From: Actinomycetota bacterium
Lineage (GTDB): Bacteria; Actinomycetota; UBA4738; CALAEC01
Length of the DNA: 45,275 nucleotides
Direction: 5' to 3'
NCBI GenBank assembly: GCA_035697085.1
Contig: DASSDP010000140.1
Coordinates: 1-45,275 of the forward strand
Shown piece by piece: positions 1,517 through 45,264 of this stretch (positions are counted from its first letter, which is position 1; every line of letters starts with the position of its first letter). Both the position numbers and the translations under genes were made by a program. The notes under the pieces are model-generated. The model was given only the letters and a program-made list of their open reading frames with translations, did no database searches and was not told where the DNA came from.

Positions 1517-2563
1517 TCAAACCGCAACTGCAAGGTCGGCCAGACGCTCCCCGATCACGGGAGCGAACTTGAAGCCGTGACCGCTGCACGGCGAGCCGAT
1601 CACGATGGGGCCCCTCCGCTCCAGGATGAAGTCCTCATCCGGAGTGTTCGTGTACAGGCATGTCTCCGTCTTGTGGGGCCGGGGGTCGGCTCGAGGGAGC
1701 CTCCGCGCGACCCAGGCAGAGAGCCGTGCCACCGCCTGCTCGTTCACCGCACCTTCCTCTTCGGGGTGCCGGATCGTCGGCCCGGCGTGGTGCTCGGCCA
1801 CCTTCCAGCTGCCCGGGGGGCTGTGCAGCGCGTAGATGGGCGGATGATCAGACCAATCGATCATGCTCGGCGGTAACGTTCCACCCGGAAGCCGAAAGTA
1901 CGCCACGGTCTCTCGCGACGGCGTCGTGGGGATGTCCATTCCCACCCCTGCAAGGAGCGACCGGGCCCATGCCCCGGCCGTGACGACGGCCACCCTGGCT
2001 CGATACGCCCCGTCGTCGGTATCGATCAACGCGCTGTCGCCAGCAACAGCGAGCGAGGTGACCCTGGTCCGCTCTCGCACCTCGACTCCGTGCCCTTGTG
2101 CTGATGCGACGAACGCCCGGACGGACCCTTCGGCGGCCACGATCCCGGCATCGGGCTGGAACAGCACTGGCTCGGCCGGCGGGATCGACAGGAACGGGAA
2201 TCGACCGCCGACCTCGGCGCCGTCGATGAGCTCACAGGCGGCGCCGAGAGTCTCCAGGGCCCGGCGGTGGGTGTGCAGAGCTTCGCCCAGGTCCAGGCCG
2301 CCGGTGGTAGTGAGCAGGTCGCGTCCCGACTCCCTTTCCAGCTCCCGCCACAGCGGGAGGGCCTCCTTGGCCATCCCCACGTAGATGGGGTCGTGGTACG
2401 AGAATCGGAAGATCCGGGATGTCCCGTGGCTGGAGCCGCGAGTGTGCCCGAGCTCGAATTGCTCCAGCAGAACGACTTCCCGGCCACGCCTGCCGAGGGC
2501 CCGCGCCGTCGCGGCTCCCATCACTCCCCCGCCGATGACGACCACGTCGGTCTCCGCTACCAC
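1517..2563 (-). CDS. FAD-dependent amine oxidase, monomeric sarcosine oxidase / N-methyltryptophan oxidase / pipecolate oxidase family
   Basis: 348 aa. N-terminal dinucleotide fold VVVIGGGVMGAATARAL, followed by GSSHGTSRIFR. The C-terminal GSPCSGHGFKFAPVIGE is typical of the MSOX/SolA family. The gene overlaps the upstream cyclodeaminase-family gene by 7 nt. Confidence 0.8.
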   Translation of the reverse strand: MVAETDVVVIGGGVMGAATARALGRRGREVVLLEQFELGHTRGSSHGTSRIFRFSYHDPIYVGMAKEALPLWRELERESGRDLLTTTGGLDLGEALHTHRRALETLGAACELIDGAEVGGRFPFLSIPPAEPVLFQPDAGIVAAEGSVRAFVASAQGHGVEVRERTRVTSLAVAGDSALIDTDDGAYRARVAVVTAGAWARSLLAGVGMDIPTTPSRETVAYFRLPGGTLPPSMIDWSDHPPIYALHSPPGSWKVAEHHAGPTIRHPEEEGAVNEQAVARLSAWVARRLPRADPRPHKTETCLYTNTPDEDFILERRGPIVIGSPCSGHGFKFAPVIGERLADLAVAV

Positions 2564-3483
2564 TGCCCCCGCTCCAGCACCGCGCCGGCCACGGCCAGGT
2601 CCTCGAATGCGACGCCGACCGACTTGAACACCGTCACGTCATCGCTCGATGTGCGAACCATCGCTCCCCTGACGACCTCGCCGAGATCCGCGGAGATGTC
2701 CGAAGCCGTGATCAACCCCTCGCCGATAGGGATGAGCAGGTCGCCGGCCTCCGCCAGTGCCGCCTCTCGCGTTTCAACCACGATCTTTGCCCGCCCGATG
2801 GTTTCGTCGTCCAGTTCCCGCGTCTCGGGACGATACGCGCCCACCGCATTCACGTGGGCTCCGTCGGAGAGGAGCCTACCGTCGAACACCGGCGAGGGGC
2901 TGGTGGTGCAGGTGCAGACGATGTCGGCCTCGTCCACCACTTCCGGTCCGGCCACGGCCGCGTCCAGGTTCAGCGTCCGGGCCCGCTCGGCCAGGCGTTC
3001 AGCGGATTCCAGAGACCGTGACACGACTCGAACACGCTCGATCGGGCGCACGGCCACCATGGCGTCCAGATGAGCGTTGGCCTGGACCCCCGCGCCGAAG
3101 ATCACCAGTCGCGCGGACTCGGGCCGAGCCAGGTGCCGTGTGGCCACCGCCGAGACCGCGGACGTGCGCAACGCCGTCAGGGCGCTTCCCTCAAGGGTGA
3201 GCCGGGGCTCCAGGCTCTCGGGCGAGAACAGCACATAGACGGAGTGAAGGAACGGCAGCCCCCGTCCGGGATTCTCCGGGGCAACCGTCACCAGCTTCAC
3301 GCCCACACCCTGTTCTCCACTTGCGGGCATGAGGAGGAGCTCCCCTCCGGGGACCTCGACGTGGTTCCTCAGCGGTGTCTCAGCGCGGGCAGCCGACTCA
3401 AAGGCTCGTTCCAGCACGTCGATCGCTTGGGAAACCGGGAGGATCCGTTCGAGCTCCCGCCCGCCGATGTGCGGGAGCGTCAT
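2557..3483 (-). CDS. Ornithine cyclodeaminase / mu-crystallin family protein
   Basis: 308 aa. Family-typical layout with an NAD fold LVIFGAGVQANAHLDAM. Overall similarity by eye to OCD, lysine cyclodeaminase and ketimine reductase proteins. The start overlaps the livF stop (ATGA). Confidence 0.8.
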   Translation of the reverse strand: MTLPHIGGRELERILPVSQAIDVLERAFESAARAETPLRNHVEVPGGELLLMPASGEQGVGVKLVTVAPENPGRGLPFLHSVYVLFSPESLEPRLTLEGSALTALRTSAVSAVATRHLARPESARLVIFGAGVQANAHLDAMVAVRPIERVRVVSRSLESAERLAERARTLNLDAAVAGPEVVDEADIVCTCTTSPSPVFDGRLLSDGAHVNAVGAYRPETRELDDETIGRAKIVVETREAALAEAGDLLIPIGEGLITASDISADLGEVVRGAMVRTSSDDVTVFKSVGVAFEDLAVAGAVLERGQW

Positions 3484-4220
3484 TCGAGGACGCCGAGATA
3501 CGCCTCCTGCATCAGGGGGTTGTCTCGAAGTGCCTGGGCGGTATCGGAAAGAACGATCCGCCCCGTCTGGATCGCGTAGCCGCGGTGGGCCACTGAGAGG
3601 GCCATGTTGGCGTTCTGCTCGACGAGGAAGATCGTGGTTCCCTGCTGGTTGATCTCCTTGATGGTCTCGAAGACCTGTTCCACCAGGATCGGTGCGAGTC
3701 CCATCGAGGGCTCGTCCATGAGGAGGACCTTCGGCTTGGCGGTGAGGGCCCGGCCGATCGCCAGCATCTGCTGCTCGCCTCCGGAGAGCGTGCCCGCCTT
3801 CTGGCTGAGGCGCTCCTCCAGCCGGGGGAAGAGCTTCAACACGCGCTGGATGTCCTCCTGGATACCCTCCTTGTCGTCTCTGAGGTTCGCCCCGATCTCC
3901 AGGTTCTCCCGGACAGTCATCTTGGCGAAGAGACGCCGGTTCTCGGGAACCATCGTGATTCCCTTGGCCACGACCTCGGTCGTGTTCAAACCGTCGATCC
4001 GCTCGCCGTCGAGGACGATCTCCCCCGCGCTCGGCTTGGTCATCCCGAGGATCGTACGAAGCGTTGTCGTCTTGCCCGCTGCGTTCGAGCCGAGCATGCA
4101 GACGATCTCCCCGGAACGGATGTCGATCGAGACTCCTTCCAGGACGCGCACCGGACCGTAGCTTGTGAACACGTCCTTCAGGGAAAGGATCGACCGGTCG
4201 TCGGTCTTCGTGTCCATCAT
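3480..4220 (-). CDS. livF: Branched-chain/HAAT-family amino-acid ABC transporter ATP-binding protein LivF
   Basis: 246 aa. Walker A GSNAAGKTT, signature LSGGEQQML, Walker B LLMDEPS. 4-nt overlaps with both neighbouring genes. Confidence 0.9.
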   Translation of the reverse strand: MMDTKTDDRSILSLKDVFTSYGPVRVLEGVSIDIRSGEIVCMLGSNAAGKTTTLRTILGMTKPSAGEIVLDGERIDGLNTTEVVAKGITMVPENRRLFAKMTVRENLEIGANLRDDKEGIQEDIQRVLKLFPRLEERLSQKAGTLSGGEQQMLAIGRALTAKPKVLLMDEPSMGLAPILVEQVFETIKEINQQGTTIFLVEQNANMALSVAHRGYAIQTGRIVLSDTAQALRDNPLMQEAYLGVLE

Positions 4221-4993
4221 TTCTGCTTCCCCAGGTAGGCCTCGATCACTCGCTCGTTGCTGGAGACCTCTTCGTAGGTCCCCTCCGCGATCTTGCGACC
4301 GTAGTCCAGCGCTACCACGCGCTCCGAGATGCCGCTGACCACTGCCATGTCGTGCTCGATGAGCACGATCGAGTATCCACGTTCGTCCCGGAGGCGAGCG
4401 ATGAGCTGGATCAGGTCCTTCTTCTCCTGGGGGTTCATGCCGGCCGCAGGCTCGTCCAGGAGCAGCAGCTTCGGCTCCGTGGCCATGGCCCGGGCGATCT
4501 CGAGCCGTCGCCGGTCGGCGTAGGCGAGCTCCGACGCGAGTTGGTCCTCTCGGAAACCCACGAGGCGGTCTCCGAAGAACGCCAGCATCTCCCGCGCTTG
4601 TGCCTGGATGTGCTCCTCCTCCCGGCGGGTGGGACCGAGGGCGAGGACCGCGCCGAGCACCCCGGATCGGGTCCGGGCGTGCTGTCCCACCATGGCGTTC
4701 TCCAGCACGGTCATGGCGGGGAACAGCCGGACAGCCTGGAATGTTCGGGCGATACCCAGCCTGGTGATCTGGTTTGGCTTCAATCCGTTGAGACTGTGCC
4801 CATCGAAGCGCATCGTGCCCTCATCGGATGGGTAGAACCCCGTGACCACGTTGAACAGGGTGGTCTTTCCCGCGCCGTTCGGCCCGATCACGCCCACGAT
4901 CTCGCCCTGGTCTGCGCGGAAGTCGACGCCGTCCACTGCCCGGACGCCTCCGAACCGCTTGGACAGGCCGGTGACCTCGAGCAGGGGGCTCAC
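4217..4993 (-). CDS. livG: HAAT-family ABC transporter ATP-binding protein LivG
   Basis: 258 aa. Walker A GPNGAGKTT, Walker B LLLDEPAAGMNP, LivG-type N-terminus MSPLLEVTGLSKRFGG. Confidence 0.9.
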   Translation of the reverse strand: MSPLLEVTGLSKRFGGVRAVDGVDFRADQGEIVGVIGPNGAGKTTLFNVVTGFYPSDEGTMRFDGHSLNGLKPNQITRLGIARTFQAVRLFPAMTVLENAMVGQHARTRSGVLGAVLALGPTRREEEHIQAQAREMLAFFGDRLVGFREDQLASELAYADRRRLEIARAMATEPKLLLLDEPAAGMNPQEKKDLIQLIARLRDERGYSIVLIEHDMAVVSGISERVVALDYGRKIAEGTYEEVSSNERVIEAYLGKQK

Positions 4994-6801
4994 TTCTCGT
5001 CACTCCCGCCCGCGGTGACCACCGGGGCCGCGGTGTCTTCGCCGGCGCGTTTAGCGAACTGGGCCTCCTCCTCGTCGACCTCGTGGAGCTCGCGGACGCG
5101 GCGCTTGTTCGGGACGAGACCCTCGGGCTTGTAGATCATGATGGCCACCAGGATGGCCCCGTAGAACAGCAGCCGGTATTCGGCGAACTCTCTGAGGAGC
5201 TCCGGGAGACCGACGAGCACAATGGAGCCGACGATCACTCCGGGGATGCTTCCCATCCCCCCCAGGATGATCACGGCGAGGACGTTGATCGAGACGATGA
5301 GCTTGAAGCTGTTGGGGAAGACCGAGCCGATCTTCACAGCGAAGAACGCGCCGCCCAGCGAGGCGATCCCGGCTCCGATGGCGAAGGCCAGGAGCTTGTA
5401 CTTGATCACGCTGATCCCCATGGCCTCGGCCACGGACTCGTCCTCCCGCATGGCGGCCCACGCCCGCCCGACGCGAGAATCCACGAGACGGTAGGAGATG
5501 AACGCAGCGAGAAGCACCGCGGCGAGGATCAGGAAGTACAGGTTGGCAGGTTTTCGAAGCTCCAGCGTTGCCGGTGGTATGTCATCGGGAGCGATGATGC
5601 CCTGGGCCCCTCCGAGCCACGGTCGCAACCAGTCGGATGCCACCAGCACCCGGATGATCTCACCGAACCCGAGCGTCACGATGGCCAGGTAGTCCCCCCG
5701 CAGTCGGAGCACCGGGGCACCGATCAAGACCCCGATGATCACGGCGAGGATGACCACGATCGGCAACGCCACCCAGAAGTTCGTGAATCCCTTGTCGCCA
5801 AGATCCAGTTGGGCCACACTGACGCCCGACTCCGACACGAGGAACGAGGAACGGAAGGTCAGAATCGCCGTGACATACGCCCCCACGGCGAAGAAGGCCA
5901 CATAGCCCAGGTCCAACAGGCCCGCGTATCCGACCACGATGTTCAGTCCGAGACCGAGAAGGACGTAGATCCCGATCGTGGTGAGCACCTCGCTCACGCG
6001 GAGGCCGGCCAAGGAAGGAAGGAAGAGCAGGAACAGGATGAACAGCGCGATGGTGCTCCACCGGAGCACGGATCGCTGTTGGGTCGGAAGCTGCCGGACC
6101 CGTTCTCTGACGAGGTCGCCCCTTCGTGTCCACGCTGTCAATAACCCGGCGACAACGACGAACACGATGATCGCTCCGGTGACGGTCAGCCCCCGGGATT
6201 GGTAGAGCCACGCTGTGTCCACCCCCAGGCCCTCGATGATCACCCGGAGCAAGGGTTCCATCAGGCTCACCAGCAGTGTGGCCACGAACCCGACCATGAG
6301 CGGCCGGCGATTGTTGCGATCCAGAAGGTGGACGGAGGCAGCGACCGCCCCCAGAGCCGCACCGAGGCCGATCAGCAACGCCGAACCGGCGCCCAAGCCT
6401 CGACCGAACAGCAGGATGTCGTCAAGCAGCACGGCCCTGATCTCCGGCGTGATCTCCGTAACGATCAGCCCTCCTTCGATGAGGGCCTTCATCGCCGCGA
6501 CGAATAACGCGACCACGGCGCCTGCGACCCCCCCAGTCAGGACTCCGAGACCGATGCGCCTCGCCGGGTCGGGCTGCTGTTCGGATGTGCCTCGCGCCGC
6601 CCGGTACGCCGCCGCGAGGATGACCAGAAGAAGGAACGTGTAGCTGAGCTGAAGGATCCCTTCTCCGTCCGCGGTTGTGAGCACGTTTCGAGTGTGGAAC
6701 CGGAGGATGTTCCCCGTGGCAGCGAGATAGATCCCCACCACGCCGGCGATGACGCCAATGATCACGGCCCGCCGCGTCGGGGTTCGGACCTTCTCGGCCA
6801 C
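4990..6801 (-). CDS. livM: HAAT-family ABC transporter permease LivM with long extra N-terminal membrane region
   Basis: 603 aa. The C-terminal ~350 aa are LivM-like (LGLNIVVGYAGLLDLGYVAFFAVGAY...). The first ~240 aa form an additional hydrophobic multi-helix region. Confidence 0.85.
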   Translation of the reverse strand: MAEKVRTPTRRAVIIGVIAGVVGIYLAATGNILRFHTRNVLTTADGEGILQLSYTFLLLVILAAAYRAARGTSEQQPDPARRIGLGVLTGGVAGAVVALFVAAMKALIEGGLIVTEITPEIRAVLLDDILLFGRGLGAGSALLIGLGAALGAVAASVHLLDRNNRRPLMVGFVATLLVSLMEPLLRVIIEGLGVDTAWLYQSRGLTVTGAIIVFVVVAGLLTAWTRRGDLVRERVRQLPTQQRSVLRWSTIALFILFLLFLPSLAGLRVSEVLTTIGIYVLLGLGLNIVVGYAGLLDLGYVAFFAVGAYVTAILTFRSSFLVSESGVSVAQLDLGDKGFTNFWVALPIVVILAVIIGVLIGAPVLRLRGDYLAIVTLGFGEIIRVLVASDWLRPWLGGAQGIIAPDDIPPATLELRKPANLYFLILAAVLLAAFISYRLVDSRVGRAWAAMREDESVAEAMGISVIKYKLLAFAIGAGIASLGGAFFAVKIGSVFPNSFKLIVSINVLAVIILGGMGSIPGVIVGSIVLVGLPELLREFAEYRLLFYGAILVAIMIYKPEGLVPNKRRVRELHEVDEEEAQFAKRAGEDTAAPVVTAGGSDEK

Positions 6802-6802
6802 C

Positions 6803-7921
6803 TCAGGCTCTCTTCTCTTCCGGAGCCCCGAGGATCCCGCCCGGCCGGAATATCAATACCAGCACCAGGATGCCGAAGGCCACCACCGGCTGGAGCTGGT
6901 TCGGCGAGTCGATACCCGCCCCGGTGAGGAACAGGATAGGCCCCACGGCCTCGAAGACCCCTAAGAGCACACCACCGATCGCGGCTCCGGCGATGCTTCC
7001 GATCCCACCGAGCACGGCTGCGGTGAACGCCTTGATCCCCGCGAAGAACCCCATGGTGAAGATGACCTGGTTGAACAGGAACACGTACAGGATCCCGGCC
7101 GCACCGGCAAGGAGGCCTCCGATGGCGAACGTGGTCACGATGGTCCGATCCACGTTGATCCCCATCAAGCTGGCGATCTCCTTGTCCTCCCCCACCGCTC
7201 GCATCGAACGCCCGGTCCTGGTGCGGGCGATGAAAAGATAGAGCCCGATCATGAGGGCGAGCGCTCCGAGGATCACCACCACCTGAGCCCTGGCCACGGC
7301 CGCCCCAAACATGGTCCAACTCCCCTCCATGATGTTGATCCTGGGGTACGCACGGGCCTGGGCGCTGTACAGTCCTCGGAACGTGTACTGGAGGAACAGC
7401 GAGGCCCCGATCGCCGTGATCAAGGGAACGAGGCGGGGAGCGCCCCGCAGGGGACGGTAGGCCACGCGCTCGAGGAGGAGGGCCACGGTCATCGAGGTGA
7501 CCATGGATACCAGGAAGAGGATGCCGATCGACAGGATCGGATTGGAGTTCAGGACGCCGTGCTCCTCCAGGGCGAAGGCTGCGAAGAGCGCCGTGAATGC
7601 CCCGGCCATGAACACCTCGCCGTGGGCGAAGTTGATCATGAACAGGATGCCGTACACGAGGGTGTAGCCCATAGCGATCAGGGCATAGACGCTTCCCCGG
7701 GCTACCCCGTTGATGACGAGGTCGATCCAGTTCGCGCCGGTGAACCGGCCGGTTCGAAGCGTGGACGCCGTTCCGATCACGACCCCCAGGACGATGGCGA
7801 TCGAGAGGATCACCAGGATCGTGCCCCTGACAGGGATGCGCTCGGGAAGCGCAAGGCGACGACGCCTCGGCGCCGAAGGCGGAGGCGGGGGCGCTTCCCT
7901 CTCAGCCGTCTGTTCTGCCAT
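6803..7921 (-). CDS. livH: HAAT-family ABC transporter permease LivH
   Basis: 372 aa. LivH-like core (YALIAMGYTLVYGILFMINFAHGE). It has a Pro/Arg-rich N-terminal extension plus an extra helix. Confidence 0.85.
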   Translation of the reverse strand: MAEQTAEREAPPPPPSAPRRRRLALPERIPVRGTILVILSIAIVLGVVIGTASTLRTGRFTGANWIDLVINGVARGSVYALIAMGYTLVYGILFMINFAHGEVFMAGAFTALFAAFALEEHGVLNSNPILSIGILFLVSMVTSMTVALLLERVAYRPLRGAPRLVPLITAIGASLFLQYTFRGLYSAQARAYPRINIMEGSWTMFGAAVARAQVVVILGALALMIGLYLFIARTRTGRSMRAVGEDKEIASLMGINVDRTIVTTFAIGGLLAGAAGILYVFLFNQVIFTMGFFAGIKAFTAAVLGGIGSIAGAAIGGVLLGVFEAVGPILFLTGAGIDSPNQLQPVVAFGILVLVLIFRPGGILGAPEEKRA

Positions 7922-20888: not shown

Positions 20889-20892
<4 letters not shown>

Positions 20893-21422
20893 CCGGGTCT
20901 GCACACTCCGCAGGGGATGTGCCCAAGCCGGTTGGCCACGGCGCGCTTCATGTTGACCGACGAATCCCCCCGAGCAAGCTCGCAGCTGGGGAGGTGATAC
21001 GTGCCCCGATCCGACACGACCACGTCGGGTCCGAGGACCCCGGCCACGGAAGAATCCCAGGTCATCGGTGGGGCTTCGCTCTCGGCGACGTGGCGCTCGG
21101 CGAGAGGACGATCAACGATCCCCACCAGCGACTCTCTTGCCAGAGGGCTGCCTTCTCCTGCCGGGTCGTTCCCCTCGTCTGCCCTCGCCGAACGTGGCGG
21201 CGTCATCGGCGCCGACCGCCACTCGTCCACGCGACTCTCCGGGACGCCTTCCCCCTCCGGTGGTTCCTCTGACCGCCTCCGGAGGACGCTCGCGGCCAGG
21301 AAGAGCGCAGCCAGCACGCTGAAGCCGATAGAGACGAAGACCAGGGTCAGGCCGCCCCTGAGAACTCCGAGCCATAGCGAGGCCACAGAGGCGAGCAAGA
21401 AAACGAGCGACAGCACATACAC
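20889..21422 (-). CDS. Hypothetical membrane protein with C-terminal His/Cys motif
   Basis: 177 aa. Two N-terminal hydrophobic helices, an acidic/Pro-rich linker, and the C-terminal YHLPSC-x23-CGVCRP. Its stop shares the palindrome CTAG with the convergent ileS stop. Confidence 0.6.
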
Positions 21423-24702: not shown

Positions 24703-25857
24703 CTAGCTCTTGTCCTTGAGGAAGTCGGGGATGTCCAGGTCGTCGTCGCCGTTGAGGACCACGGTCGCCGGCGCCGCCTGAAACAGGTCATCCTCCTCGT
24801 CCTCTTCCGGTTCTTGCAGCAGTGATGGGAGGGGGATGGATTCCTCCTCTTCCTCTTCGAGCTCGGGTCCGCGCTCCATCTGGAACGCCACAGACGGTCG
24901 CGCCGTCCCGAGTTTGTCGAAACCCGCGGCGATGACGGTCACCCGGCACTCGTCGCCGAGGGAGTCATCGATCACCGCCCCGAAGATGATGTTGGCGTCC
25001 GGGTGGGCCACCCGCGTGATCGCCTCTGCGGCTCGGTTGACCTCATGCAGCGCCAGATCGGATGGGCCGGCGATCGACAGCAACAGACCCTTGGCTCCCT
25101 CGATCGATGATTCGAGGAGAGGCGAGGAAACCGCGTTCCTCGCCGCTTCCTCGGCGCGGTTCTCGCCGGAAGCATGTCCGATCCCCATGAGCGCCGATCC
25201 CGCGCCGCTCATCACGGTTCGGACATCGGCGAAGTCCAGGTTGATGAGTCCCGGGGTCATGATCAGGCTCGTGATCCCCTCTACGCCCTGATACAGGACC
25301 TGGTCTGCCATCCGGAAGGCGTCCAGGACGGAGGTCTCCGGATCGGAGATCTGGAGCAGGCGGTCGTTGGGTACAACGATCAGCGTGTCGACCGAATCCT
25401 TCAGCTCGTTGATGCCCATGTCGGCCTGGGTGGCTCGGCGCTTTCCCTCAAACGAGAACGGGCGAGTCACCACGCCGATCGTGAGCGCACCGAGATCCCG
25501 GGCCACCTGGGCAACCAGTGGGCTCGCGCCCGTACCGGTCCCGCCTCCCTGGCCGGCGGTGATGAAGACCATGTCGGCGCCCTTCAGGAGCTCCTCGATC
25601 TCGGCGCGGTGCTCCTCGGCGGCGCGCCTTCCGGTCTCGGGGTCCGCTCCCGATCCGAGGCCCCGCGTCGTCTCCCGGCCGATGTCCAGCTTCACGTCGG
25701 CTTCGGACATCAGAAGCGCCTGAGCGTCGGTGTTGCACGCGATGAACTCGACGCCCTTCAGTCCAGCCTCGATCATGCGGTTGACGGCGTTGACTCCACC
25801 GCCCCCGATCCCGACGACCTTGATGACTGCCAGGTAGTTCTGTGGCGCCTGCAGCAT
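24703..25857 (-). CDS. ftsZ: Cell division GTPase FtsZ
   Basis: Tubulin signature [30 protein letters not shown]-terminal [10 protein letters not shown] peptide. ATG 25857 has GGAGG 5 nt upstream; the ORF-track GTG at 25881 adds 8 residues. Confidence 0.95.
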
Positions 25858-25987
25858 GCTCGCCTCCGCGTCCTCGCCCACTTCGGCTCAACCCCCGAGC
25901 TCACCTGCGAGAACAGGTGCGGCACTGCTGGGGGGTTAACCTCAACTGTATGGTTATGGTTATGTAAACCTAACTTACAGGGCGAGG

Positions 25988-26016
25988 AATCTACACGACC
26001 CCCGACCTCGTGTCAA
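25988..26016 (-). promoter_or_regulatory. Near-consensus promoter for ftsZ
   Basis: The minus strand reads TTGACA - 17 nt (cgaggtcgggggtcgtg) - TAGATT. This predicts a leader of about 120 nt before the ftsZ ATG. Confidence 0.55.
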
Positions 26017-26097
26017 GCCTGATAGCTCCCCTGCCGACGCGGATTTGAGCTTGCTGCCGCCACGCTCCGATTCGTACAGGAAAGTGCTGAAGTATCC

Positions 26098-27954
26098 TTG
26101 CCGTCGATGAGCGCAGAATCAGTGCCACTCGGGGAACACCCGCCTTCGAAATCACCGGAACAGGCCCCAGTCCCCAAAGACTCTCCGCAGCGACGACGCG
26201 AGGCTCACTACGCCGTGACTCGAGTCCTGTCCAAGGCCACATCGATCGGCGAAGCGGCGCCAAAGATTCTGGGTGCCGTCGGGGAGAGTCTTGGGTGGGA
26301 CGTCGGTGCCATCTGGACGATCGATCGCGGAGTCCTGCGTTGCGTGGACGTCTGGAAGGCGCCCGGTCTGGATGTTCCCGAGTTCGAGGCGATCACCCGG
26401 GAGAAGACGTTCCCGCCAGGCGTCGGATTGCCGGGCCGCGTCTGGTCGACGGGAGCGAGCGCCTGGATCGAAGACGTCGGCCGGGACGACAACTTCCCCA
26501 GAGCATCCATGGCTGCGGCCGAAGGATTGCACGGCGCCTTCGCGTTCCCCATCTCGAGCGGTGCCGGTGTGCTCGGCGTCGTTGAGGCGTTCAGCCGGCA
26601 GGTCCGGGAGCCCGACGAGGACCTGCTCGAGATGATGGCCGCGATCGGCACCCAGATCGGCCTGTTCATCCAGCACCGGGAAGCCGAGGATTCGATTCGT
26701 GCAAGCGAGCGACGGTTCGCGTTCCTGGCAGAAGCGGGCGCGCTGCTGGCAGCGTCGCTCAACTACGAACGAACGCTGGCGAAGGTGGCCCGTCTCGGGG
26801 TTCCGGATCTCGCCGACTGGTGCGCCGTCGACGTCCTGGAACCGGATGGCACCATCCGGCGGCTTGCCGTCGCGCACACGGATCCGGCGAAGGTGGCGCT
26901 GGCGAATCGCATGCGCCGCAGGTACCCGCCCGAAGACGCCGGAGCCGGCCTGGGGAAGGTCCTCCGGACAGGACGTTCGGAGCTCTACCCGCAGATCGCC
27001 CCCGACTCGCTGGAAACAATTGCCTTCGACGATGAACATCTGAACATCCTTCAGTCGCTGGGTCTCACCTCGGGAATGTGGGTGCCGCTCACGGCACGGG
27101 GCCGGACGCTCGGCGCGATCACCTTCGCCAGCTCCGACTCGGGCCGCGTGTACGGTCCCGAGGACCTGAGCCTCGCTGACGAACTCGGCCGACTCGCCGG
27201 CGTGGCCGTCGACAACGCAAGGCTGTACGAAGAGCGAAGCCACATCGCCCGAACCCTGCAGCGGAGTTTGCTCCCGCCGCGGTTGCCCGAGATTCCCGGG
27301 ATCGAGGTGGCCGCGCGCTACCGGGCCGCCGGTGAGGGCAACGAGGTCGGCGGCGATTTCTACGATGTCTTCGAGGTCGGCAAGGGCGCGTGGGCGGTCA
27401 TGATCGGCGATGTCTGTGGCAAGGGGGCCGGTGCGGCAGCGATCACGGGACTCGCTCGCCATACGCTGAGAACGGCCGCCATGAGCGAGTGGCGGCCGAG
27501 AAGGATACTCGTCGTCCTCAACGAGGCCCTGGTCCGAAACGAGACCGACGAGTACTGCACGGTCGCCTTCGCCCGGTTGAGCAGCATGGGAAAGCGTGTC
27601 AGGGTAACGCTGGCGTGCGGAGGTCATCCCCCACCGTTGTTTCTGGGTGCCGATGGAACGGTCGAAGCGGCCGGCCGACCCGGGACCCTGCTCGGCGTCT
27701 TCCCGGACCCGGAGTTCGCCACCGCGGTCCTCGACCTCCAACCGGGCGACGCCCTTCTTTTCTATACCGACGGGGTGACGGAGTCCCGGCCCGGAGTCGG
27801 TCTCAGCGAGACGGCTCTCCGGGACCTCCTCGTGTCACGGACAGGAGACTCCGCTGAGAAGCTGGCCGATGCGGTGGAACGCGCCGCGGTGGAGGCGCAG
27901 CCCGACGGGCCGCGCGACGATATCGCCATCGTCTGTGTTCGGGTGAGCGAGTGA
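26098..27954 (+). CDS. GAF-GAF-PP2C (SpoIIE/RsbU-type) serine phosphatase
   Basis: 618 aa. Two GAF-like regions (WDVGAIWTID...GLPGRVW, and DWCAVDVLEPDG...MWVPLTARGRTLGAITF). PP2C motifs GGDFYDVF, IGDVCGKG, FYTDGVTE, DDIAIVCVRV. The start is TTG 26098 or ATG 26107. Confidence 0.9.
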   Translation: MPSMSAESVPLGEHPPSKSPEQAPVPKDSPQRRREAHYAVTRVLSKATSIGEAAPKILGAVGESLGWDVGAIWTIDRGVLRCVDVWKAPGLDVPEFEAITREKTFPPGVGLPGRVWSTGASAWIEDVGRDDNFPRASMAAAEGLHGAFAFPISSGAGVLGVVEAFSRQVREPDEDLLEMMAAIGTQIGLFIQHREAEDSIRASERRFAFLAEAGALLAASLNYERTLAKVARLGVPDLADWCAVDVLEPDGTIRRLAVAHTDPAKVALANRMRRRYPPEDAGAGLGKVLRTGRSELYPQIAPDSLETIAFDDEHLNILQSLGLTSGMWVPLTARGRTLGAITFASSDSGRVYGPEDLSLADELGRLAGVAVDNARLYEERSHIARTLQRSLLPPRLPEIPGIEVAARYRAAGEGNEVGGDFYDVFEVGKGAWAVMIGDVCGKGAGAAAITGLARHTLRTAAMSEWRPRRILVVLNEALVRNETDEYCTVAFARLSSMGKRVRVTLACGGHPPPLFLGADGTVEAAGRPGTLLGVFPDPEFATAVLDLQPGDALLFYTDGVTESRPGVGLSETALRDLLVSRTGDSAEKLADAVERAAVEAQPDGPRDDIAIVCVRVSE

Positions 27955-28289
27955 CCGACTTTCAGGTGAGCGTCAGCGAGACGGATGGGGTCGTGTCGCT
28001 GTCCCTGACCGGAGAGCTCGACCTGGCCACGGCGGGGCGCCTCGAGTCCGAGCTGCGACGCGTCGAAGGCGGGGGCCCATCCGTTCTGATCATCGATCTG
28101 AGACAACTGCGGTTCATCGATTCGACGGGGCTGCGGCTGATCATCGGGGCCGACGCCCGGGCGCGTGAGGACGGCAGGCGGATGGCGATAGTCCCCGGGC
28201 CGGTGTCCGTGCACAAGGTCTTCGAACTCGCACTGCTCGACAAGCGGCTCGAATTCATCGAGGACCCGTCCACGCTGGAGGGGGCATGA
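27951..28289 (+). CDS. STAS-domain anti-sigma-factor antagonist (RsbV/SpoIIAA-like)
   Basis: 112 aa. Conserved phosphorylatable serine context LRFIDSTGL (Ser58). The GTG start overlaps the phosphatase stop (GTGA). Confidence 0.9.
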   Translation: MTDFQVSVSETDGVVSLSLTGELDLATAGRLESELRRVEGGGPSVLIIDLRQLRFIDSTGLRLIIGADARAREDGRRMAIVPGPVSVHKVFELALLDKRLEFIEDPSTLEGA

Positions 28290-28294
28290 ACGCA

Positions 28295-28316
28295 GCCCTC
28301 AGGCAGGCCTGAGGGC
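28295..28316. terminator. Perfect 9-bp hairpin at the convergent STAS/ftsQ junction (possible bidirectional terminator or RNA-end structure)
   Basis: GCCCTCAGG-cagg-CCTGAGGGC. It spans the ftsQ stop codon and last codons and begins 6 nt after the STAS stop. There is no clear U-tract on either strand. Confidence 0.3.
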
Positions 28317-29006
28317 AGGGGCGGCCGGCGAGCGAACGTCCAGGTACTCGATCTCGATCTGGTTCTTCCGCGCGTATCGAAGCATCGAAGCGAGGGCCGC
28401 GTTCTTTGCGCCGAGCGACTCCGCCTCCCCGTAGAGGACCCTCGCACCGTCCTCCAGTAGCAGCTCGATCTCCTTCCCCACGGACCGCGCCTCCTCCACG
28501 GTCCGCCGAAGCGCCGGCGTCAGCGACGCTGCCACCCGGAGGGGGCCATCGAGCCCACCGGCGCGCGCCCCCACCGCGAGTGATGTCGCGGTGCTGCCCA
28601 GAGAGACGAGGCCAATAGGGGCTCCAATGCCTCGCTCTACGACGACGCCGTCACCGGCAACCGCGGCCCACCCGGCGGGGTCGCGAAGCCAGGCCACCGC
28701 GGCACGCTCGCGCACTTGAAGCACGAGCGTGGAGGGGAGGGACCGTGTGGCTTCCGCGTTCGCGATCCATGGACTGCGCATGAGCGACCGCTGGGTCTCC
28801 TCGAGGGACACCGTGAGCAGGTTGCTTCCCGTATGAGCTCCCGAGAGCTTCACCACTTCGTGGTCGGAAAGCTGTCGGTTCCCACGAACCTCGATCGTGT
28901 TGATGTCGAAGAGCGGGGACGTGAACACGACCCACGCGGAGACTCCGAGCGCGAGGACGGCCACGATCGCCGTCAAGGCCTTCGGAACTTGACGACTATC
29001 GTTCAC
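28299..29006 (-). CDS. ftsQ: Cell division protein FtsQ (POTRA domain)
   Basis: 235 aa. One N-terminal TM helix, POTRA-like FDINTIEVRGNRQLSDHEVVKLSG. Overlaps the murB end by 11 nt. Confidence 0.85.
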   Translation of the reverse strand: MNDSRQVPKALTAIVAVLALGVSAWVVFTSPLFDINTIEVRGNRQLSDHEVVKLSGAHTGSNLLTVSLEETQRSLMRSPWIANAEATRSLPSTLVLQVRERAAVAWLRDPAGWAAVAGDGVVVERGIGAPIGLVSLGSTATSLAVGARAGGLDGPLRVAASLTPALRRTVEEARSVGKEIELLLEDGARVLYGEAESLGAKNAALASMLRYARKNQIEIEYLDVRSPAAPALRPA

Positions 29007-29928
29007 CGAACTGCCCTACCAGGTGCACCTCCGGCTCCAGTTCGGTCCCGAAACGCTCTTTCACCCGTTGCTGAACCATCGTGATGAGCTGGTACACGTC
29101 CTGGGCGGTGGCTCCCGGCGTCGCCACCACGAAATTGGAATGTTTCTCGGAGACTTTTGCTCCACCAACAGAGAGGCTCTTTCCTCCGGCCGCCTCGACC
29201 AGCCGGGCCGCGTGATCGCCGGGGGGATTCTTGAACACGCTGCCGCAGTTGGGTTCGGCCAGGGGCTGCGTCGCTCGCCGCCATTCCCGAGCCTCGTCCA
29301 TGTGCGCGCGGATGTCGGCGGGATCGCCCGGGCGGAGCCGCACCGCTGCGGCCGTGACGACCCCATCCTCCGGAAGGGTGGAGCCTCGATAGGCGAACTC
29401 CACGTCATCGGCAGCGATCCACCGCTTCGTCCCCGCCCTGAGCAGGAAGATCTCGACCGTCTCCACGACCTCATCCAGGGAGTGGCCGTGGGCCCCGGCG
29501 TTCATCCGCACGCACCCTCCAAGCGAGGCCGGGATGGCCACGCCGAACTCCAGGCCGGCCAGGGCATGCGAGAGCGCCACTCCGGCCAGGGCGGGCAGCG
29601 GCATCGCCGCACCTGCCGTCAGGCGTTCACCGTTCCTGGCCGCCCATCGGAACGTGCGCCCCAGACGAAGGACCAACCCCTCGAACCCCTTGTCCGATAC
29701 CAGGAGATTGGAACCCTTCCCGATAACCACGTGGGGGATCCCCGACTCCACGATGGCCCGACCCGCCGCTGCCAGATCCGCATCCGATTCGGCCTCCAGG
29801 TACAAGGCCGCCGGACCTCCCAGGCGAAACGAGGTCAGGGCGGCAAGGGAAAAGTTCTCCCGCAGCCGAGGCTCGGCTGCTTGCCGCATGATGTTCCTGG
29901 CCACGGAGAGCGCCCCGTCCTCGCTCAT
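28996..29928 (-). CDS. murB: UDP-N-acetylenolpyruvoylglucosamine reductase MurB
   Basis: 310 aa. FAD-binding domain (TSFRLGGPA, GKGSNLLV). C-terminal GSVFKNP and SEKHSNF motifs. Confidence 0.92.
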   Translation of the reverse strand: MSEDGALSVARNIMRQAAEPRLRENFSLAALTSFRLGGPAALYLEAESDADLAAAGRAIVESGIPHVVIGKGSNLLVSDKGFEGLVLRLGRTFRWAARNGERLTAGAAMPLPALAGVALSHALAGLEFGVAIPASLGGCVRMNAGAHGHSLDEVVETVEIFLLRAGTKRWIAADDVEFAYRGSTLPEDGVVTAAAVRLRPGDPADIRAHMDEAREWRRATQPLAEPNCGSVFKNPPGDHAARLVEAAGGKSLSVGGAKVSEKHSNFVVATPGATAQDVYQLITMVQQRVKERFGTELEPEVHLVGQFGER

Positions 29929-31398: not shown

Positions 31399-32382
31399 CT
31401 AGACGTGGTACACGTTCGTCTTCAGCTCGCTCAGATTGTGGCGTACCCAGTCCGCCGTGGCACGTAACCCCTCCTCCAGTGTGACCTCGGGCTTCCAACC
31501 CGCCCACTCGCGAGCCCTGGTGTTGTCGCATAGGAGTCGCTGCACCTCGCTCCCGGTCGGCCGAAGGCGTTCGTTCTCCACCACGATCTCCTTGCGTAGC
31601 CCCGTGACCTCGAAGAGAAACTCGATGAGTTCTCCGATGGAGATCTCTCGCCCGGAGCCGATGTTGACGACCTCCCCCGCCGCCCGGTCGGACGAGGCCA
31701 CGGCCAGGAAACCGCTCACGGTATCGCTCACGAAGTTGAAGTCCCGGGTCGGCGAAACGGCACCCACACGGATCCGGTCCGCGTCTCCGTACAGCTGGCC
31801 GAGGAGGCTCGGGATCACCGCGCGGGTCGACTGCCTCGGTCCGTAGGTGTTGAACGGTCGGACGATCGCCACGGGGAGCTCGAAGGAGTGGTGGAAGCTC
31901 ATCGCCAGCATGTCCGCTCCGATCTTCGTGGCGGAGTACGGTGACTGCGGCTGCAGCGGGTGGGTCTCGTCGATGGGGACGGACCGCGCGGTCCCGTACA
32001 CCTCGCTCGTCGAGGTGTGCACGATGCGGTCCACCCCAGCTCGGCGGCTCGAGTTGAGAATGTGGTAGGTGCCCGTGACATTCGTCTGCACGTAGCTCTC
32101 CGGCGATTCGTAGCTGTACGGGATGCCGATCAGCGCCGCCAGGTGGAAGACCACCTCCATCCCCTCCACGGCCTGGAGGACCCGCTCGCCGTCTCGAACA
32201 TCACCGGCAAGGATCTCCACATCCTGCTCGCGCCCGTGGAGCCATCCCAGGCGCCCGCTTGGGGTGTAGTGCACCAAGACACGAACCGCGGCTCCCTCGG
32301 CCAGCAGTCGATCGACGAGGTGGCTTCCGATGAAGCCGTCACCGCCCGTGACCAGCACGCGCCGTCCCCGCCAGGAGCTCAC
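31399..32382 (-). CDS. Extended-SDR NAD-dependent sugar epimerase/4,6-dehydratase family protein
   Basis: 327 aa. Rossmann VLVTGGDGFIGSHLV. Catalytic STSEVYG ... YSATK. The GTG start immediately follows the stop of the upstream nucleotidyltransferase gene. Confidence 0.85.
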   Translation of the reverse strand: MSSWRGRRVLVTGGDGFIGSHLVDRLLAEGAAVRVLVHYTPSGRLGWLHGREQDVEILAGDVRDGERVLQAVEGMEVVFHLAALIGIPYSYESPESYVQTNVTGTYHILNSSRRAGVDRIVHTSTSEVYGTARSVPIDETHPLQPQSPYSATKIGADMLAMSFHHSFELPVAIVRPFNTYGPRQSTRAVIPSLLGQLYGDADRIRVGAVSPTRDFNFVSDTVSGFLAVASSDRAAGEVVNIGSGREISIGELIEFLFEVTGLRKEIVVENERLRPTGSEVQRLLCDNTRAREWAGWKPEVTLEEGLRATADWVRHNLSELKTNVYHV

Positions 32383-33090
32383 CTAATCCTCCTCGCTCGT
32401 GGCGTACTCGTGGAGGACGTGCTCGAGGTCCTCGGGGCTTCCGACATCGAACCAGCTCTCCTTGATCGTGAAGATGCGGATGGGAAGGTCCTCATGGAGT
32501 ACCGCATCCAGCAGGTCCGGCATGTCGATCATCGAGTCGTGCGGTACGAGCCGCAGCACCTCGGGCTGGAGCATGTAGATGCCCGCGTTGCACAGGAGGT
32601 CCTGCTCCGGTTTCTCCTGGATCGACACGAGCCGGTCGCCATCCGTGCGGAGCACCGCGTAGGGGATCCGGGCCGCGTACGGAACCGCGGCGATCGTGGC
32701 CGCTCCCCCGTGCTCCTGATGAAACTCGCAGAACGCTCGATAGTCCATCCCGGTCAGGATGTCGGCGGCCATGACCAGGACCGACTTCCCTTTCACCCCG
32801 TCTTTGGGAAGCAGGGACAATGCTCCTGCGGTCCCGAGCGGTTGCCCCTCCCGCAGATACTGAAGGTTCACCCCGAGGTGATCGCCGTTTCCGAGGCGCC
32901 GCTCGAACGCGTCTGCCTTGTAGTTCACCGCGAGGTAGACGTCGTGGATTCCCGCGGACGCGAGCGAAGCGATGATGCGCTCGATGATGGAGGAGGATCC
33001 CACCCTGAGCAGCGGTTTGGGGACCTTGTCGGTGAGGGGGCGGAGCCGCTGGCCTCGGCCCCCCGCCATGATCACCGCTATCGCCGTCAT
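32383..33090 (-). CDS. Sugar-1-phosphate nucleotidyltransferase (NTP_transferase fold, short form)
   Basis: Signature MTAIAVIMAGGRGQRLRPLTDKVPKPLL at ATG 33090; the ORF is open to 33186. GTAGAL. No left-handed beta-helix tail. Confidence 0.85.
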   Translation of the reverse strand: MTAIAVIMAGGRGQRLRPLTDKVPKPLLRVGSSSIIERIIASLASAGIHDVYLAVNYKADAFERRLGNGDHLGVNLQYLREGQPLGTAGALSLLPKDGVKGKSVLVMAADILTGMDYRAFCEFHQEHGGAATIAAVPYAARIPYAVLRTDGDRLVSIQEKPEQDLLCNAGIYMLQPEVLRLVPHDSMIDMPDLLDAVLHEDLPIRIFTIKESWFDVGSPEDLEHVLHEYATSEED

Positions 33091-33198
33091 CGGAGCATCT
33101 TCGTCTCGGATCTCGCGAACCCCCTTCACGCCCGGTTTCCCGACCGCCCGGCGCTCGCGCGAGTATGTCACGCCCCTCCCCGTCACCTGCCGCGTTCC

Positions 33199-43212: not shown

Positions 43213-44081
43213 CAGGCCGCTTCCTTCTCCGCCGCCCGCAGCTTCGCGGCCCGAGCCCTCGCATTGCGGGCCATCTCGGCAGCGCTCGGGCGAATGGGTT
43301 TCTTCGTCAGCGAGCGGAGGCGCTCCTCCCCCGCCACGAATCGCTTGACGATCCGGTCCTCGAGCGAGTGGTACGAGATCACAACGAGGCGACCACCGGG
43401 AGCGAGGAGCTCAATCGTCTGGGGAAGGGAGACGGAGAGCTCCTCGAGCTCCCGGTTGACCTCGATCCGGATGGCCTGGAACGTTCGGCGCGCGGGGTGG
43501 GGTCCTCCCCGTTTCTTGGGAACGGCCGACGCCACCACTGCGGCAAGCTCCGCGGTCGTCTCGATCGGACCGCGCTCCCGAGCCCGAACGATGGCTCCCG
43601 CGATCCGGCCGGAGAACCGCTCCTCACCGTACTGGCGGATCACCCGGGCCAGTTCGTCCTCGGGATAGGTGTTCACGACGTCTCGGGCGGTCGTCCCTTC
43701 GTGGCCCATGCGCATGTCGAGCGGCCCCTCGGATCGATACGAGAAGCCGCGCTCGGGCTGGTCGAGATGCATGGAGGAGACACCGAGGTCGTACAGCGCG
43801 GCGTTCGTTGCGCGAGTACCGGTCTCCCTGACGATCCGCTCCACCTCAGAGAATCGCCCGTGCACTCCGACGAAGCGGTCACCGTACGGAGCCAACCGCT
43901 CCGTCGCTCCGGACAGCGCCTCTCGATCTCGGTCGACCCCGATCACGCGGCCGACCCCAGCAGCCAATAGCGCCTCCGCGTGGCCTCCGAGGCCGACCGT
44001 CAGATCCAGCACCGTCTGCGATTCCGACAACAGCCCAACCACCTCCTGGACGAGAACGGGTTCGTGCCGCTCTCTACCCAA
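43212..44081 (-). CDS. rsmH: 16S rRNA (cytosine1402-N4)-methyltransferase RsmH (MraW)
   Basis: 289 aa. HEPVLVQEV N-terminus, SAM-binding TVGLGGH, DLGVSS motif. The only possible start is TTG 44081, because there is an in-frame TGA 4 codons upstream. No own SD. Confidence 0.92.
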   Translation of the reverse strand: MGRERHEPVLVQEVVGLLSESQTVLDLTVGLGGHAEALLAAGVGRVIGVDRDREALSGATERLAPYGDRFVGVHGRFSEVERIVRETGTRATNAALYDLGVSSMHLDQPERGFSYRSEGPLDMRMGHEGTTARDVVNTYPEDELARVIRQYGEERFSGRIAGAIVRARERGPIETTAELAAVVASAVPKKRGGPHPARRTFQAIRIEVNRELEELSVSLPQTIELLAPGGRLVVISYHSLEDRIVKRFVAGEERLRSLTKKPIRPSAAEMARNARARAAKLRAAEKEAA

Positions 44082-44178
44082 GTACCCGGATCACCCACTG
44101 TGCGAGGGCCACGTACGAGGCCACCACCCCGGCCATCAAGGCCATGAGGCGCAGGCTCTGCCCGATCTCCCGAAGCAT
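44074..44178 (-). CDS. Candidate 34-aa hydrophobic small protein between mraZ and rsmH
   Basis: ATG 44178 is preceded by GGGGAGGAGG at about 8 nt spacing. Product: MLREIGQSLRLMALMAGVVASYVALAQWVIRVLG, one predicted TM helix. The stop overlaps the rsmH TTG start by 8 nt. Confidence 0.45.
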   Translation of the reverse strand: MLREIGQSLRLMALMAGVVASYVALAQWVIRVLG

Positions 44179-44195
44179 GGTTCTCGCCTCCTCCC

Positions 44196-44645
44196 CTATC
44201 GCTCGGGCACGAGGGCGCCCGACGAGTACGATCCGCCGTGCGATTCCCGGTACCGTCGCCACTCCGCCCCGTCCCAGATCTCCAGACGGTCCGAGACGCC
44301 GACCACCGCTACCTCTCGCCCCAGGTGCGCGTTCTCTCGCAGGGTGCGTGGCAGGACGAGTCGCCCCTGGGGATCGAGGTCCACCCGATCGGCGTTGCCG
44401 AAGAACATCCGCGCGTACGCACGGTTCGCGGGCTCGGAGATCGGGAGTGCCTGGACCTCTTCCTTTCTCCGATCCCACTCCTGCCGAGGAAAGGCGAACA
44501 GGCAGCCGTCCTGGCCGAGCGTCAGGTACACGCCTTCCTCGAACGCACCGCGGAACTTCGAGGGCAGCGAGATGCGACCCTTGGTATCGACCTGGTAGTG
44601 ATGCTCGCCGAGAAGCTCGGACAACGTGGGGCCCTCCCCCTCCAC
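44196..44645 (-). CDS. mraZ: Transcriptional regulator MraZ
   Basis: Two SpoVT/AbrB-like repeats (VDTKGRISLPSKFR and DPQGRLVLPRTLR). GTG 44645 is the longest start. TTG 44624 has GGAGGG 7 nt upstream and gives a more typical N-terminus. Confidence 0.92.
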   Translation of the reverse strand: MEGEGPTLSELLGEHHYQVDTKGRISLPSKFRGAFEEGVYLTLGQDGCLFAFPRQEWDRRKEEVQALPISEPANRAYARMFFGNADRVDLDPQGRLVLPRTLRENAHLGREVAVVGVSDRLEIWDGAEWRRYRESHGGSYSSGALVPER

Positions 44646-44677
44646 AGTGCCCCACTTTTATGCCACTTCCACTCCAC
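44642..44677 (-). repeat. Array of GTGG boxes at helical spacing immediately upstream of mraZ (putative MraZ operator)
   Basis: The minus strand reads GTGGAGTGGAAGTGGCATAAAAGTGGGGCACTGTGG. CCAC on the plus strand starts at 44642, 44652, 44663 and 44674 (spacing 10, 11, 11), with an extra copy at 44669. Confidence 0.45.
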
Positions 44678-44781: not shown

Positions 44782-45264
44782 TTAGCTGAGGTAGGCCTCC
44801 CATTCCGGCTCGAGGCGACCAATGAGCAGCCGGAAGCCGTCCCGAGGAGCGAAGGGGTCGCGCCTCAGGTTGATGCCCACTTCGTGGGGGAGACGGTTCT
44901 CCTTGCGCGAGTTGCATCGGCGGCAGGCAGCCACAACGTTCTCCCAGACGTGCTCCCCTCCCCGTGATCGGGGGATGACATGGTCGACGTTCTCTGCTGC
45001 TGCACCGCAGTACTGGCAGGTCCATTCGTCACGGGCGAACACTGCTCGGCGAGTGAGCGAGGCCCGCGCCCGGAACGGAACCCGGACGTAGTAATTCAGC
45101 CTGACCACCGAGGGCGCCTCAATCTGGAGCCGCTCGGAGTGGAACACCACACCATCGGTCTCCAGGATCTGGGCCTTGTCCTTGAGGACGAGAACGACCG
45201 CCCGCCTCGCGGTCACCACCGCGAGGGGCTCGAACGATGCGTTCAGGACCAGTGATCTCCCCAT
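44782..45264 (-). CDS. HNH endonuclease family protein
   Basis: 160 aa. CQYCG...DHVIPRSRGG...NVVAACRRCNSRK (HNH with two CxxC pairs). It ends 136 nt upstream of mraZ on the same strand. Confidence 0.85.
   Translation of the reverse strand: MGRSLVLNASFEPLAVVTARRAVVLVLKDKAQILETDGVVFHSERLQIEAPSVVRLNYYVRVPFRARASLTRRAVFARDEWTCQYCGAAAENVDHVIPRSRGGEHVWENVVAACRRCNSRKENRLPHEVGINLRRDPFAPRDGFRLLIGRLEPEWEAYLS

Follow-up and report, generated by a model that had tools for sequence, protein, structure and literature searches.

The closest described relatives of the system considered here are the partner switches of Bacillus, RsbU/RsbP–RsbV–RsbW–sigmaB and SpoIIE–SpoIIAA–SpoIIAB–sigmaF. In these, a PP2C phosphatase of the SpoIIE family carries an N-terminal sensor region, its substrate is a single-domain STAS protein with the serine in a DS(S/T)G context, and the genes for phosphatase and antagonist are adjacent. 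The same features are present in a pair of genes on contig DASSDP010000140.1, from an uncultured Actinomycetota metagenome-assembled genome (MAG), where the 45,275 nt analyzed (the window) hold the division and cell-wall (dcw) region. In contrast to the Bacillus systems, there is no gene for a kinase/anti-sigma factor or for a sigma factor in the operon or in the 45 kb, the sensor is a tandem of GAF domains (instead of the RsbU N-domain, a PAS domain, or the SpoIIE membrane region), and the pair is inverted within dcw, between ftsQ and ftsZ. The dcw cluster is among the most rigidly ordered bacterial gene clusters. The two proteins are ordinary members of well-known families and the new thing is their location; we found no description in the literature of such a pair in dcw. 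Our reading is that the pair probably feeds a classical partner-switching network as an input branch of two genes, specific to the clade and inherited vertically, with the kinase supplied in trans.

Two other systems are useful for comparison. In Mycobacterium tuberculosis, Rv1364c fuses PAS, PP2C, kinase, and STAS domains in one polypeptide, whereas the window has separate genes. Its PP2C domain (3KE6) is the closest solved one to the window phosphatase, with those of Pseudomonas aeruginosa RssB and SpoIIE also among the closest, and RsfB (8IH8) is the closest solved STAS protein, together with SpoIIAA. Identity to the mycobacterial proteins is low (E-values 1e-10 to 1e-20), and the genes for Rv1364c and RsfA/RsfB are not in dcw. 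RsfA and RsfB act on UsfX–SigF, and RsfB, which is encoded away from its kinase/anti-sigma partner, offers by analogy a precedent for action in trans. The second system is SpoIIE of Bacillus, which belongs to the same phosphatase family as the window phosphatase, has the same kind of substrate (a STAS antagonist), and is physically linked to FtsZ. Ten membrane segments and a dedicated central FtsZ-binding region set SpoIIE apart; the window phosphatase is a soluble protein in which GAF domains take that place, and its tie to ftsZ is purely genomic.

The genes and sites at the locus are the following:

24703-25857, minus strand: ftsZ, 384 amino acids from ATG 25857, with Tubulin and FtsZ_C domains
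26107-27954, plus strand: phosphatase of GAF-GAF-PP2C (SpoIIE/RsbU) type by Pfam; the open reading frame (ORF) from TTG 26098 gives 618 amino acids
~26239-26673, plus strand: GAF1 of the phosphatase
~26812-27210, plus strand: GAF2 of the phosphatase
~27382-27945, plus strand: PP2C domain of the phosphatase
27951-27954, plus strand: GTGA, the 4-nt overlap of phosphatase stop and STAS start
27951-28289, plus strand: single-domain STAS protein of the anti-sigma-factor antagonist type (Pfam STAS), 112 amino acids
28122-28124, plus strand: TCG, codon of Ser58 of the STAS protein
28299-29006, minus strand: ftsQ, with POTRA_1 and FtsQ_DivIB_C domains, convergent with the STAS gene

The phosphatase matches the SpoIIE/PP2C family of Pfam (PF07228) over residues 429-616 with 144.5 bits, against a cut-off of 25 (E-value 4.8e-42), and GAF_2 with an E-value of 2.2e-27; two GAF regions fill residues 41-375. 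The metal-binding motifs GGDFYD, GDVCGKG, YTDG, and DDIA-V are present, align with those of the phosphatase domains of Rv1364c and P. aeruginosa RssB, and are invariant in 16 orthologs (except for one Ile of DDIAIV). The predicted activity of the enzyme is dephosphorylation of the phosphorylated STAS protein. It is not SpoIIE proper: The score against TIGR02865 is 37.6 bits where 490.8 are needed, far under the equivalog cut-off, as is also the case for RssB; there is no hydrophobic segment (the maximum Kyte–Doolittle value in a 19-residue window is 1.5); and the N-terminal two-thirds are occupied by the GAF domains. Six cysteines (82, 242, 440, 487, 507, and 613 in the 618-residue numbering) are invariant in the 16 orthologs, one in each GAF domain and one inside GDVCGKG, and redox sensing by these residues is possible. 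For the GAF domains, a profile search against the PDB gave only weak matches (the GAF domains of Nlh1/Nlh2, a phosphodiesterase, and DevS), from which no ligand can be derived.

The STAS protein scores 59.8 bits against Pfam STAS (cut-off 22.6; E-value 2.5e-16) and 58.3 bits against TIGR00377, the anti-sigma-factor antagonist family (cut-off 53.45), but falls far under the equivalog cut-off of SpoIIAA. Its FIDSTGL segment aligns with FMDSSGL of SpoIIAA. Ser58 is invariant in all 121 homologs, and the phosphorylatable loop D57-S58-T59-G60 is invariant or nearly so. The two genes overlap by GTGA and are translationally coupled as judged from their sequence; an overlap of 4 nt is kept in L002, L003, and L004 (locus numbers of this type are used throughout). 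A phosphate cycle that persists would account together for the retained phospho-serine, the active site, and the coupling.

The window contains every gene of the canonical actinobacterial dcw end, murC-(murB)-ftsQ-ftsZ-yfiH-yggS-sepF-yggT-divIVA, in that order, and also the promoter element proximal to ftsZ; it differs by two clade-specific insertions. On the minus strand, genes follow one another as mraW, ftsI, murE, murF, mraY, murD, ftsW, murG, a nucleotidyltransferase gene, a LegB-like dehydratase gene, murC, murB, and ftsQ, and, past an interruption of 2.4 kb, ftsZ, yfiH, yggS, sepF, yggT, and divIVA. Thus, ftsQ is not directly 5′ of ftsZ: The genes of the pair, on the opposite strand, intervene. 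From the last mur gene to ftsZ the window has 3139 bp, against a median of 1135 bp in the 75 informative GTDB loci among the matches listed. Between the stop codons of ftsQ and of the STAS gene there are 9 nt, and from -4 to ~22 nt in the orthologous loci. The ftsZ ORF extends over 24703-25881, but the in-frame GTG at 25881 is a less likely start than ATG 25857, which has GGAGG 5 nt on its 5′ side and agrees with the gene calls of 385 amino acids in orthologous contigs; FtsZ is 97%–99% identical in amino acids to the proteins of the orthologous loci.

The original prediction, made from the letters of the window, had described most of this: the ftsQ end at 28299 and the ftsZ start at 25857, now borne out by ORFs, domains, and ortholog gene calls; two coupled plus-strand genes in the 2.4 kb between them; a STAS protein of 112 residues with Ser58 in FIDSTGL; and the usual adjacency of ftsQ and ftsZ elsewhere. 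It had also given the phosphatase 618 residues. The domains and motifs stand, whereas the start at TTG 26098 is less likely than ATG 26107 (615 residues), at which the methionine is conserved in orthologs.

Homologs of the phosphatase fall into a tight group of 75%–95% identity (~600-625 amino acids), after which identity drops steeply to ~50% in a very large PAS-GAF-GAF-PP2C family. Similarly, STAS homologs range from 93% down to 64% identity (~40 clusters) and are then at 55% or less. In the 11 related loci inspected (L001-L005, L086-L090, and L100, with STAS identity of at least 64%), the pair always lies between ftsQ and ftsZ in the same orientation. Five of them (L086-L090) were retrieved via FtsQ and are therefore unbiased toward the pair. 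On the other hand, no PP2C or STAS homolog occurs near ftsZ in any of 80 other Actinomycetota genomes of GTDB among the matches listed (FtsZ query, 60%–77% identity); a scan of GTDB with FtsQ as query returned no relatives. The comparison of synteny that had been proposed with the prediction thus gives an insertion conserved in the clade.

Between the window and six orthologous loci, synonymous divergence (dS) is 0.7-1.1, and the ratio of nonsynonymous to synonymous divergence (dN/dS) is 0.09-0.15 for the phosphatase, 0.12-0.32 for the STAS gene, 0.12-0.14 for murB and murC, 0.16-0.25 for ftsQ, and 0.01-0.02 for ftsZ. Both genes of the pair are held by purifying selection. A functionless remnant of a cassette, hitch-hiking or decaying in the spacer, would be consistent with the loss of the kinase gene and of the PAS domain that the closest relatives have. 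But neither ORF is disrupted in any full-length locus, the catalytic motifs and Ser58 do not vary, and dN/dS of 0.09-0.32 at dS ~1, as low as for murB/murC and below ftsQ, effectively refutes a passenger, which we consider extremely improbable. At the same time, vertical descent would by itself be expected to leave the genes in order at dS ~1, so the order alone shows no functional tie between the pair and its neighbors. The base composition of the pair is that of the neighboring genes and there are no direct or inverted repeats around it, and a mobile-element origin was rejected; the insertion is old and settled, not a recent mobile one.

The closest pairs outside the clade (L095, L097, and L099) have STAS proteins with 50%–55% identity and phosphatases ~53% identical across GAF-GAF-PP2C. 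All three are three-gene cassettes outside dcw, in unrelated neighborhoods, and encode PAS-GAF(-GAF)-PP2C, STAS, and HATPase_c_2 proteins, the last of 126-136 amino acids and resembling SpoIIAB/RsbW. They share with the dcw pair the order of the genes and the overlap or abutment of phosphatase and STAS genes; they differ by a PAS domain at the N terminus of the phosphatase and by the kinase gene, both of which the dcw pair lacks. The place of the kinase gene is occupied in dcw by the 3′ end of ftsQ, abutting the STAS gene. The dcw pair thus looks, at the sequence level, like a copy of such a cassette minus PAS domain and kinase gene. Three other PAS-GAF-GAF-PP2C proteins found by similarity to the phosphatase (P0105, P0111, and P0024) have neither STAS nor dcw neighbors and were set aside as uninformative on the pair.

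With kinase-bearing cassettes as the outgroup, and with Ser58 and the active site invariant, the parsimonious interpretation is that the pair works by ordinary partner switching and that its kinase acts in trans. A copy of a PAS-GAF-GAF-PP2C / STAS / RsbW-like cassette, without PAS and kinase, would have become fixed in the ftsQ–ftsZ spacer. The tandem GAF domains may respond to a small molecule or to redox conditions, and the signal would switch on the metal-dependent PP2C domain, which would dephosphorylate the co-translated STAS protein at Ser58. The unphosphorylated STAS protein would then bind a kinase/anti-sigma factor of the RsbW/SpoIIAB type encoded elsewhere, with release of an alternative sigma factor. 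In this scheme, ftsZ would be transcribed from its own retained promoters and the pair from a core promoter of its own, ~75 bp away and facing the opposite way.

Several observations weigh against such a branch with its kinase in trans. As had been predicted, Pfam scans of all plausible ORFs of the window gave neither a HATPase nor a sigma domain. When the RsbW-like kinases of the closest cassettes were used as tblastn queries, neither the window nor the orthologous loci of 20 kb gave a match; like the window, these loci have no gene for a cognate kinase/anti-sigma factor or for a sigma factor. Among the named hits, no close paralog comes from the same NCBI assembly (accessions HET677...), all named paralogs being in other assemblies. 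Finally, a signaling pair is fixed beside ftsZ throughout the clade and an unrelated MAG, from Frankiales, has another signaling gene in this position, which leaves room for a link to division. The locus is not a complete partner-switching operon, since phosphatase and antagonist stand by themselves; the closest cassettes add the kinase but are also without a nearby sigma gene.

The same absences can be read as a pair that no longer depends on a kinase or has been re-targeted: The phosphatase could dephosphorylate different proteins, such as those modified by Ser/Thr kinases, or the STAS protein could bind, independently of phosphorylation, to a non-sigma partner, a kind of target that had been suggested originally. 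HsbA of Pseudomonas and SypA of Vibrio are STAS proteins with non-sigma outputs, a kinase gene adjoins the pair in none of the 11 loci, and the additional loss of the ancestral-type PAS domain suggests rewiring. Yet Ser58, its DSTG context, and the metal motifs of the phosphatase are invariant, the genes are still coupled in translation as expected for an enzyme and a substrate that cycle phosphate, and orphan antagonists served by distant kinases are common in Actinobacteria (RsfA and RsfB with UsfX in M. tuberculosis). The closest relatives being cassettes that end in an RsbW/SpoIIAB-like kinase, the suggestion of a non-sigma target finds no support, and we regard re-targeting as rather improbable.

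How the insertion affects ftsZ depends on the 240-bp divergent region that ftsZ shares, as predicted, with the phosphatase operon. The sites in it are the following:

25932-26024, minus strand: ftsZ upstream block of 95 nt, 95%–97% identical in nucleotides to L002-L005, between diverged flanks and in loci with dS ~1
25952-25971, minus strand: AGGTTTACATAACCATAACC, clade version of a widespread element 5′ of actinobacterial ftsZ, downstream of TTGACA-17-TAGATT
25988-26016, minus strand: sigma-70-like candidate promoter toward ftsZ, with -35 TTGACA (26016-26011), a 17-nt spacer, and -10 TAGATT (25993-25988)
26093-26098, plus strand: TATCCT, candidate -10 (TANNNT) of the phosphatase operon, 8 nt before ATG 26107

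The TTGACA-17-TAGATT site, within the conserved block, has 10 of 12 matches, where 0.1 sites are expected in shuffled sequences. In ~25 other Actinomycetota loci, all without the pair, variants of the AGGTTGACATAACTATAACC consensus (regular-expression search, four mismatches at most) occur 50-240 nt upstream of ftsZ: in L007, L008, L015, L016, L020, L027, L029, L044, L046, L048, L050, L054, and L056-L058, and further in L060, L062, L064, L069, L072, L076, L078, and L081-L083. The AGGTTGACATAACTATAACC element is followed by a CTCAACTTGAGGGTTAAGG-like sequence; farther upstream, the hexamer TACNGT is conserved, and GACAC is often present as well. In Mycobacterium smegmatis, a 41-bp fragment cloned as the ftsZ P1 promoter contains the AGGTTGACATAACTATAACC-like element, and three of the four ftsZ transcripts start within the ftsQ–ftsZ spacer (PMC3139271). 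The occurrence of the element in loci without the pair and in the P1 fragment indicates that promoters of its own are the ancestral state of ftsZ. The block would then be the retained ancestral ftsZ promoter region, and the insertion point would lie just upstream of it, with the block kept intact. The original prediction had ftsZ severed from mur-ftsQ. Physically, co-directional transcription of dcw is indeed interrupted, but the usual control (95-nt block, candidate promoter, and ancestral element) is kept, and ftsZ has plausibly lost, at most, read-through from ftsQ.

For the phosphatase operon, the window shares with L002, L003, and L004 a TANNNT hexamer 6-9 nt 5′ of the conserved ATG, although the neighboring bases diverge. 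This suggests a leaderless transcript, or one with a very short leader, from a putative separate promoter. Its predicted leaderless start is at ~26107, and those predicted for ftsZ are near 25981 and within or past 25952-25971. Two candidates for the block were not retained. A sigma-B/F-like GGTTAA-N12-GGTTAT on the plus strand was dropped because its -35 part is not conserved in orthologs, and a hairpin model of the widespread element was inconsistent between lineages by eye, so that the element is kept as a promoter element at the DNA level. Rfam gave one chance-level match on 25700-28500 (radC, E = 0.99), and the conserved ftsZ leader block belongs to none of its RNA families. We found no literature that treats the AGGTTGACATAACTATAACC element as conserved. 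Little notice seems to have been taken of the block, which contains this element, shared by much of the phylum.

The other end of the insertion, where the pair meets ftsQ, contains one further feature:

28295-28316, unstranded: GC-rich palindrome with a 9-bp stem, spanning the ftsQ stop and 5 nt past the STAS stop, without a U-tract

In the window, the folding energy of the palindrome is -21 kcal/mol, with z = -2.9 for either strand; z is ~0 in L003 and L004, and the hairpin is absent in L002. We rejected a conserved bidirectional terminator, since the fold is significant in the window alone, is made up mostly of ftsQ codons (L-R-P-A-stop), and has no U-tract. With no conserved terminator, the convergent transcripts of ftsQ and of the pair probably overlap.

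This geometry is part of what speaks for a role in division. The STAS protein or the phosphatase could act on a divisome component or on a division-specific sigma factor, or expression could be tied to that of ftsZ by the back-to-back promoters and antisense read-through from ftsQ. A signal sensed by the GAF domains would then tune division, in a functional analog of the link between septation and sigma-F made by SpoIIE–SpoIIAA in Bacillus. The pair starts ~90 bp from the -35 of ftsZ in a shared divergent region, the tight junction with ftsQ (-4 to ~22 nt) implies that transcripts should overlap, the site is occupied and under purifying selection in the whole clade, the kinase of the closest relatives is missing at the locus, and SpoIIE, a PP2C of the same Pfam family, is known to bind FtsZ. 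A PAS-GGDEF gene in the same spacer of the Frankiales MAG (L056) points in the same direction. The support is thus positional throughout, and, as seen above, the order of the genes is expected to be conserved at dS ~1. The phosphatase has neither membrane segments nor the FtsZ-binding region of SpoIIE, the ancestral ftsZ promoter block is intact, the two core promoters appear separate, and the literature search gave nothing that links such a pair to dcw. We consider coupling to division unlikely, and still more doubtful its specific form in which a STAS protein without kinase makes the pair an independently evolved counterpart of the SpoIIE–SpoIIAA link. The idea of a GAF ligand coupled to division, also part of the original prediction, draws on the same position. 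A partner-switching input branch with the kinase in trans is the reading we retain, and the location would be due to insertion into a tolerant spacer and not to a function in division.

Other loci have insertions in or near the same spacer. In L056 (MAG Frankiales bacterium, JAOPWV010000183.1), the PAS-GGDEF diguanylate cyclase gene (3393-4415) is co-directional, between ftsQ (2561-3319) and ftsZ (4699), with the conserved ftsZ upstream element just past it; it is an independent case of a signaling gene in this spacer. In L023 (Actinomycetota bacterium CA-103832, CP192092.1, a complete genome), two minus-strand transposase-like ORFs occur between ftsQ and ftsZ (5125-7547), placed in the IS110 and IS256 families from their translated sequences alone; such insertion sequences fit a spacer that is merely tolerant. 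In Glycomyces (L009, 6144-7121; L011, ~6157-7128), murC and ftsQ are separated by an opposite-strand gene for a siderophore-interacting protein (SIP, FAD_binding_9), a further lineage-specific insertion in dcw. L007 (CAZJSY010000031.1), labeled as uncultured Burkholderiales, has an actinobacterial-type dcw end (murB-ftsQ-ftsZ-yfiH-yggS-sepF) with the actinobacterial ftsZ element and is probably mis-binned or mislabeled.

The second clade-specific insertion in dcw (31399-33186, minus strand) is co-directional, between murG and murC, and consists of genes for a sugar-1-phosphate nucleotidyltransferase and a LegB-like NAD-dependent 4,6-dehydratase (438 bits, under the cut-off of 475). These two genes are kept in L002-L005 and L087-L088 and are not near ftsZ in the 80 GTDB loci among the matches listed. 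The murB gene is inside dcw (28996-29928), between murC and ftsQ. Among the GTDB loci listed, contigs of Acidimicrobiia type and unclassified Actinomycetota contigs (such as L007, L010, L013, L021, L032, L075, and L084) have murB in dcw, which was not seen in Streptomyces, Micrococcales, or Propionibacteriales; its placement hints at a deep-branching class for the lineage of the window. At the window edge, an ORF without Pfam match is found 5′ of mraW, at the usual place of mraZ, followed by an HNH endonuclease gene (44074-44655 and 44782-45264, minus strand). A conserved ORF of ~175 amino acids, also without Pfam match, lies between ileS and divIVA (20889-21422, minus strand), with counterparts in L002 (4360-4893), L003 (4784-5299), and L004 (870-1397).

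The placement of the pair is real, unusual, and conserved, and what speaks for control of division by it is its position. An inverted signaling operon that is under selection and has become fixed in the ftsQ–ftsZ spacer amounts to an unusual natural experiment. To our knowledge, Actinobacteria lack the classical FtsZ regulators, and, if the placement were functional, it would offer a route for a small-molecule or redox signal into actinobacterial division. Smaller lessons are more secure. The ftsQ–ftsZ spacer tolerates insertions provided that the promoter block proximal to ftsZ stays intact, and a partner-switching cassette can survive the loss of its kinase as an orphan input branch.

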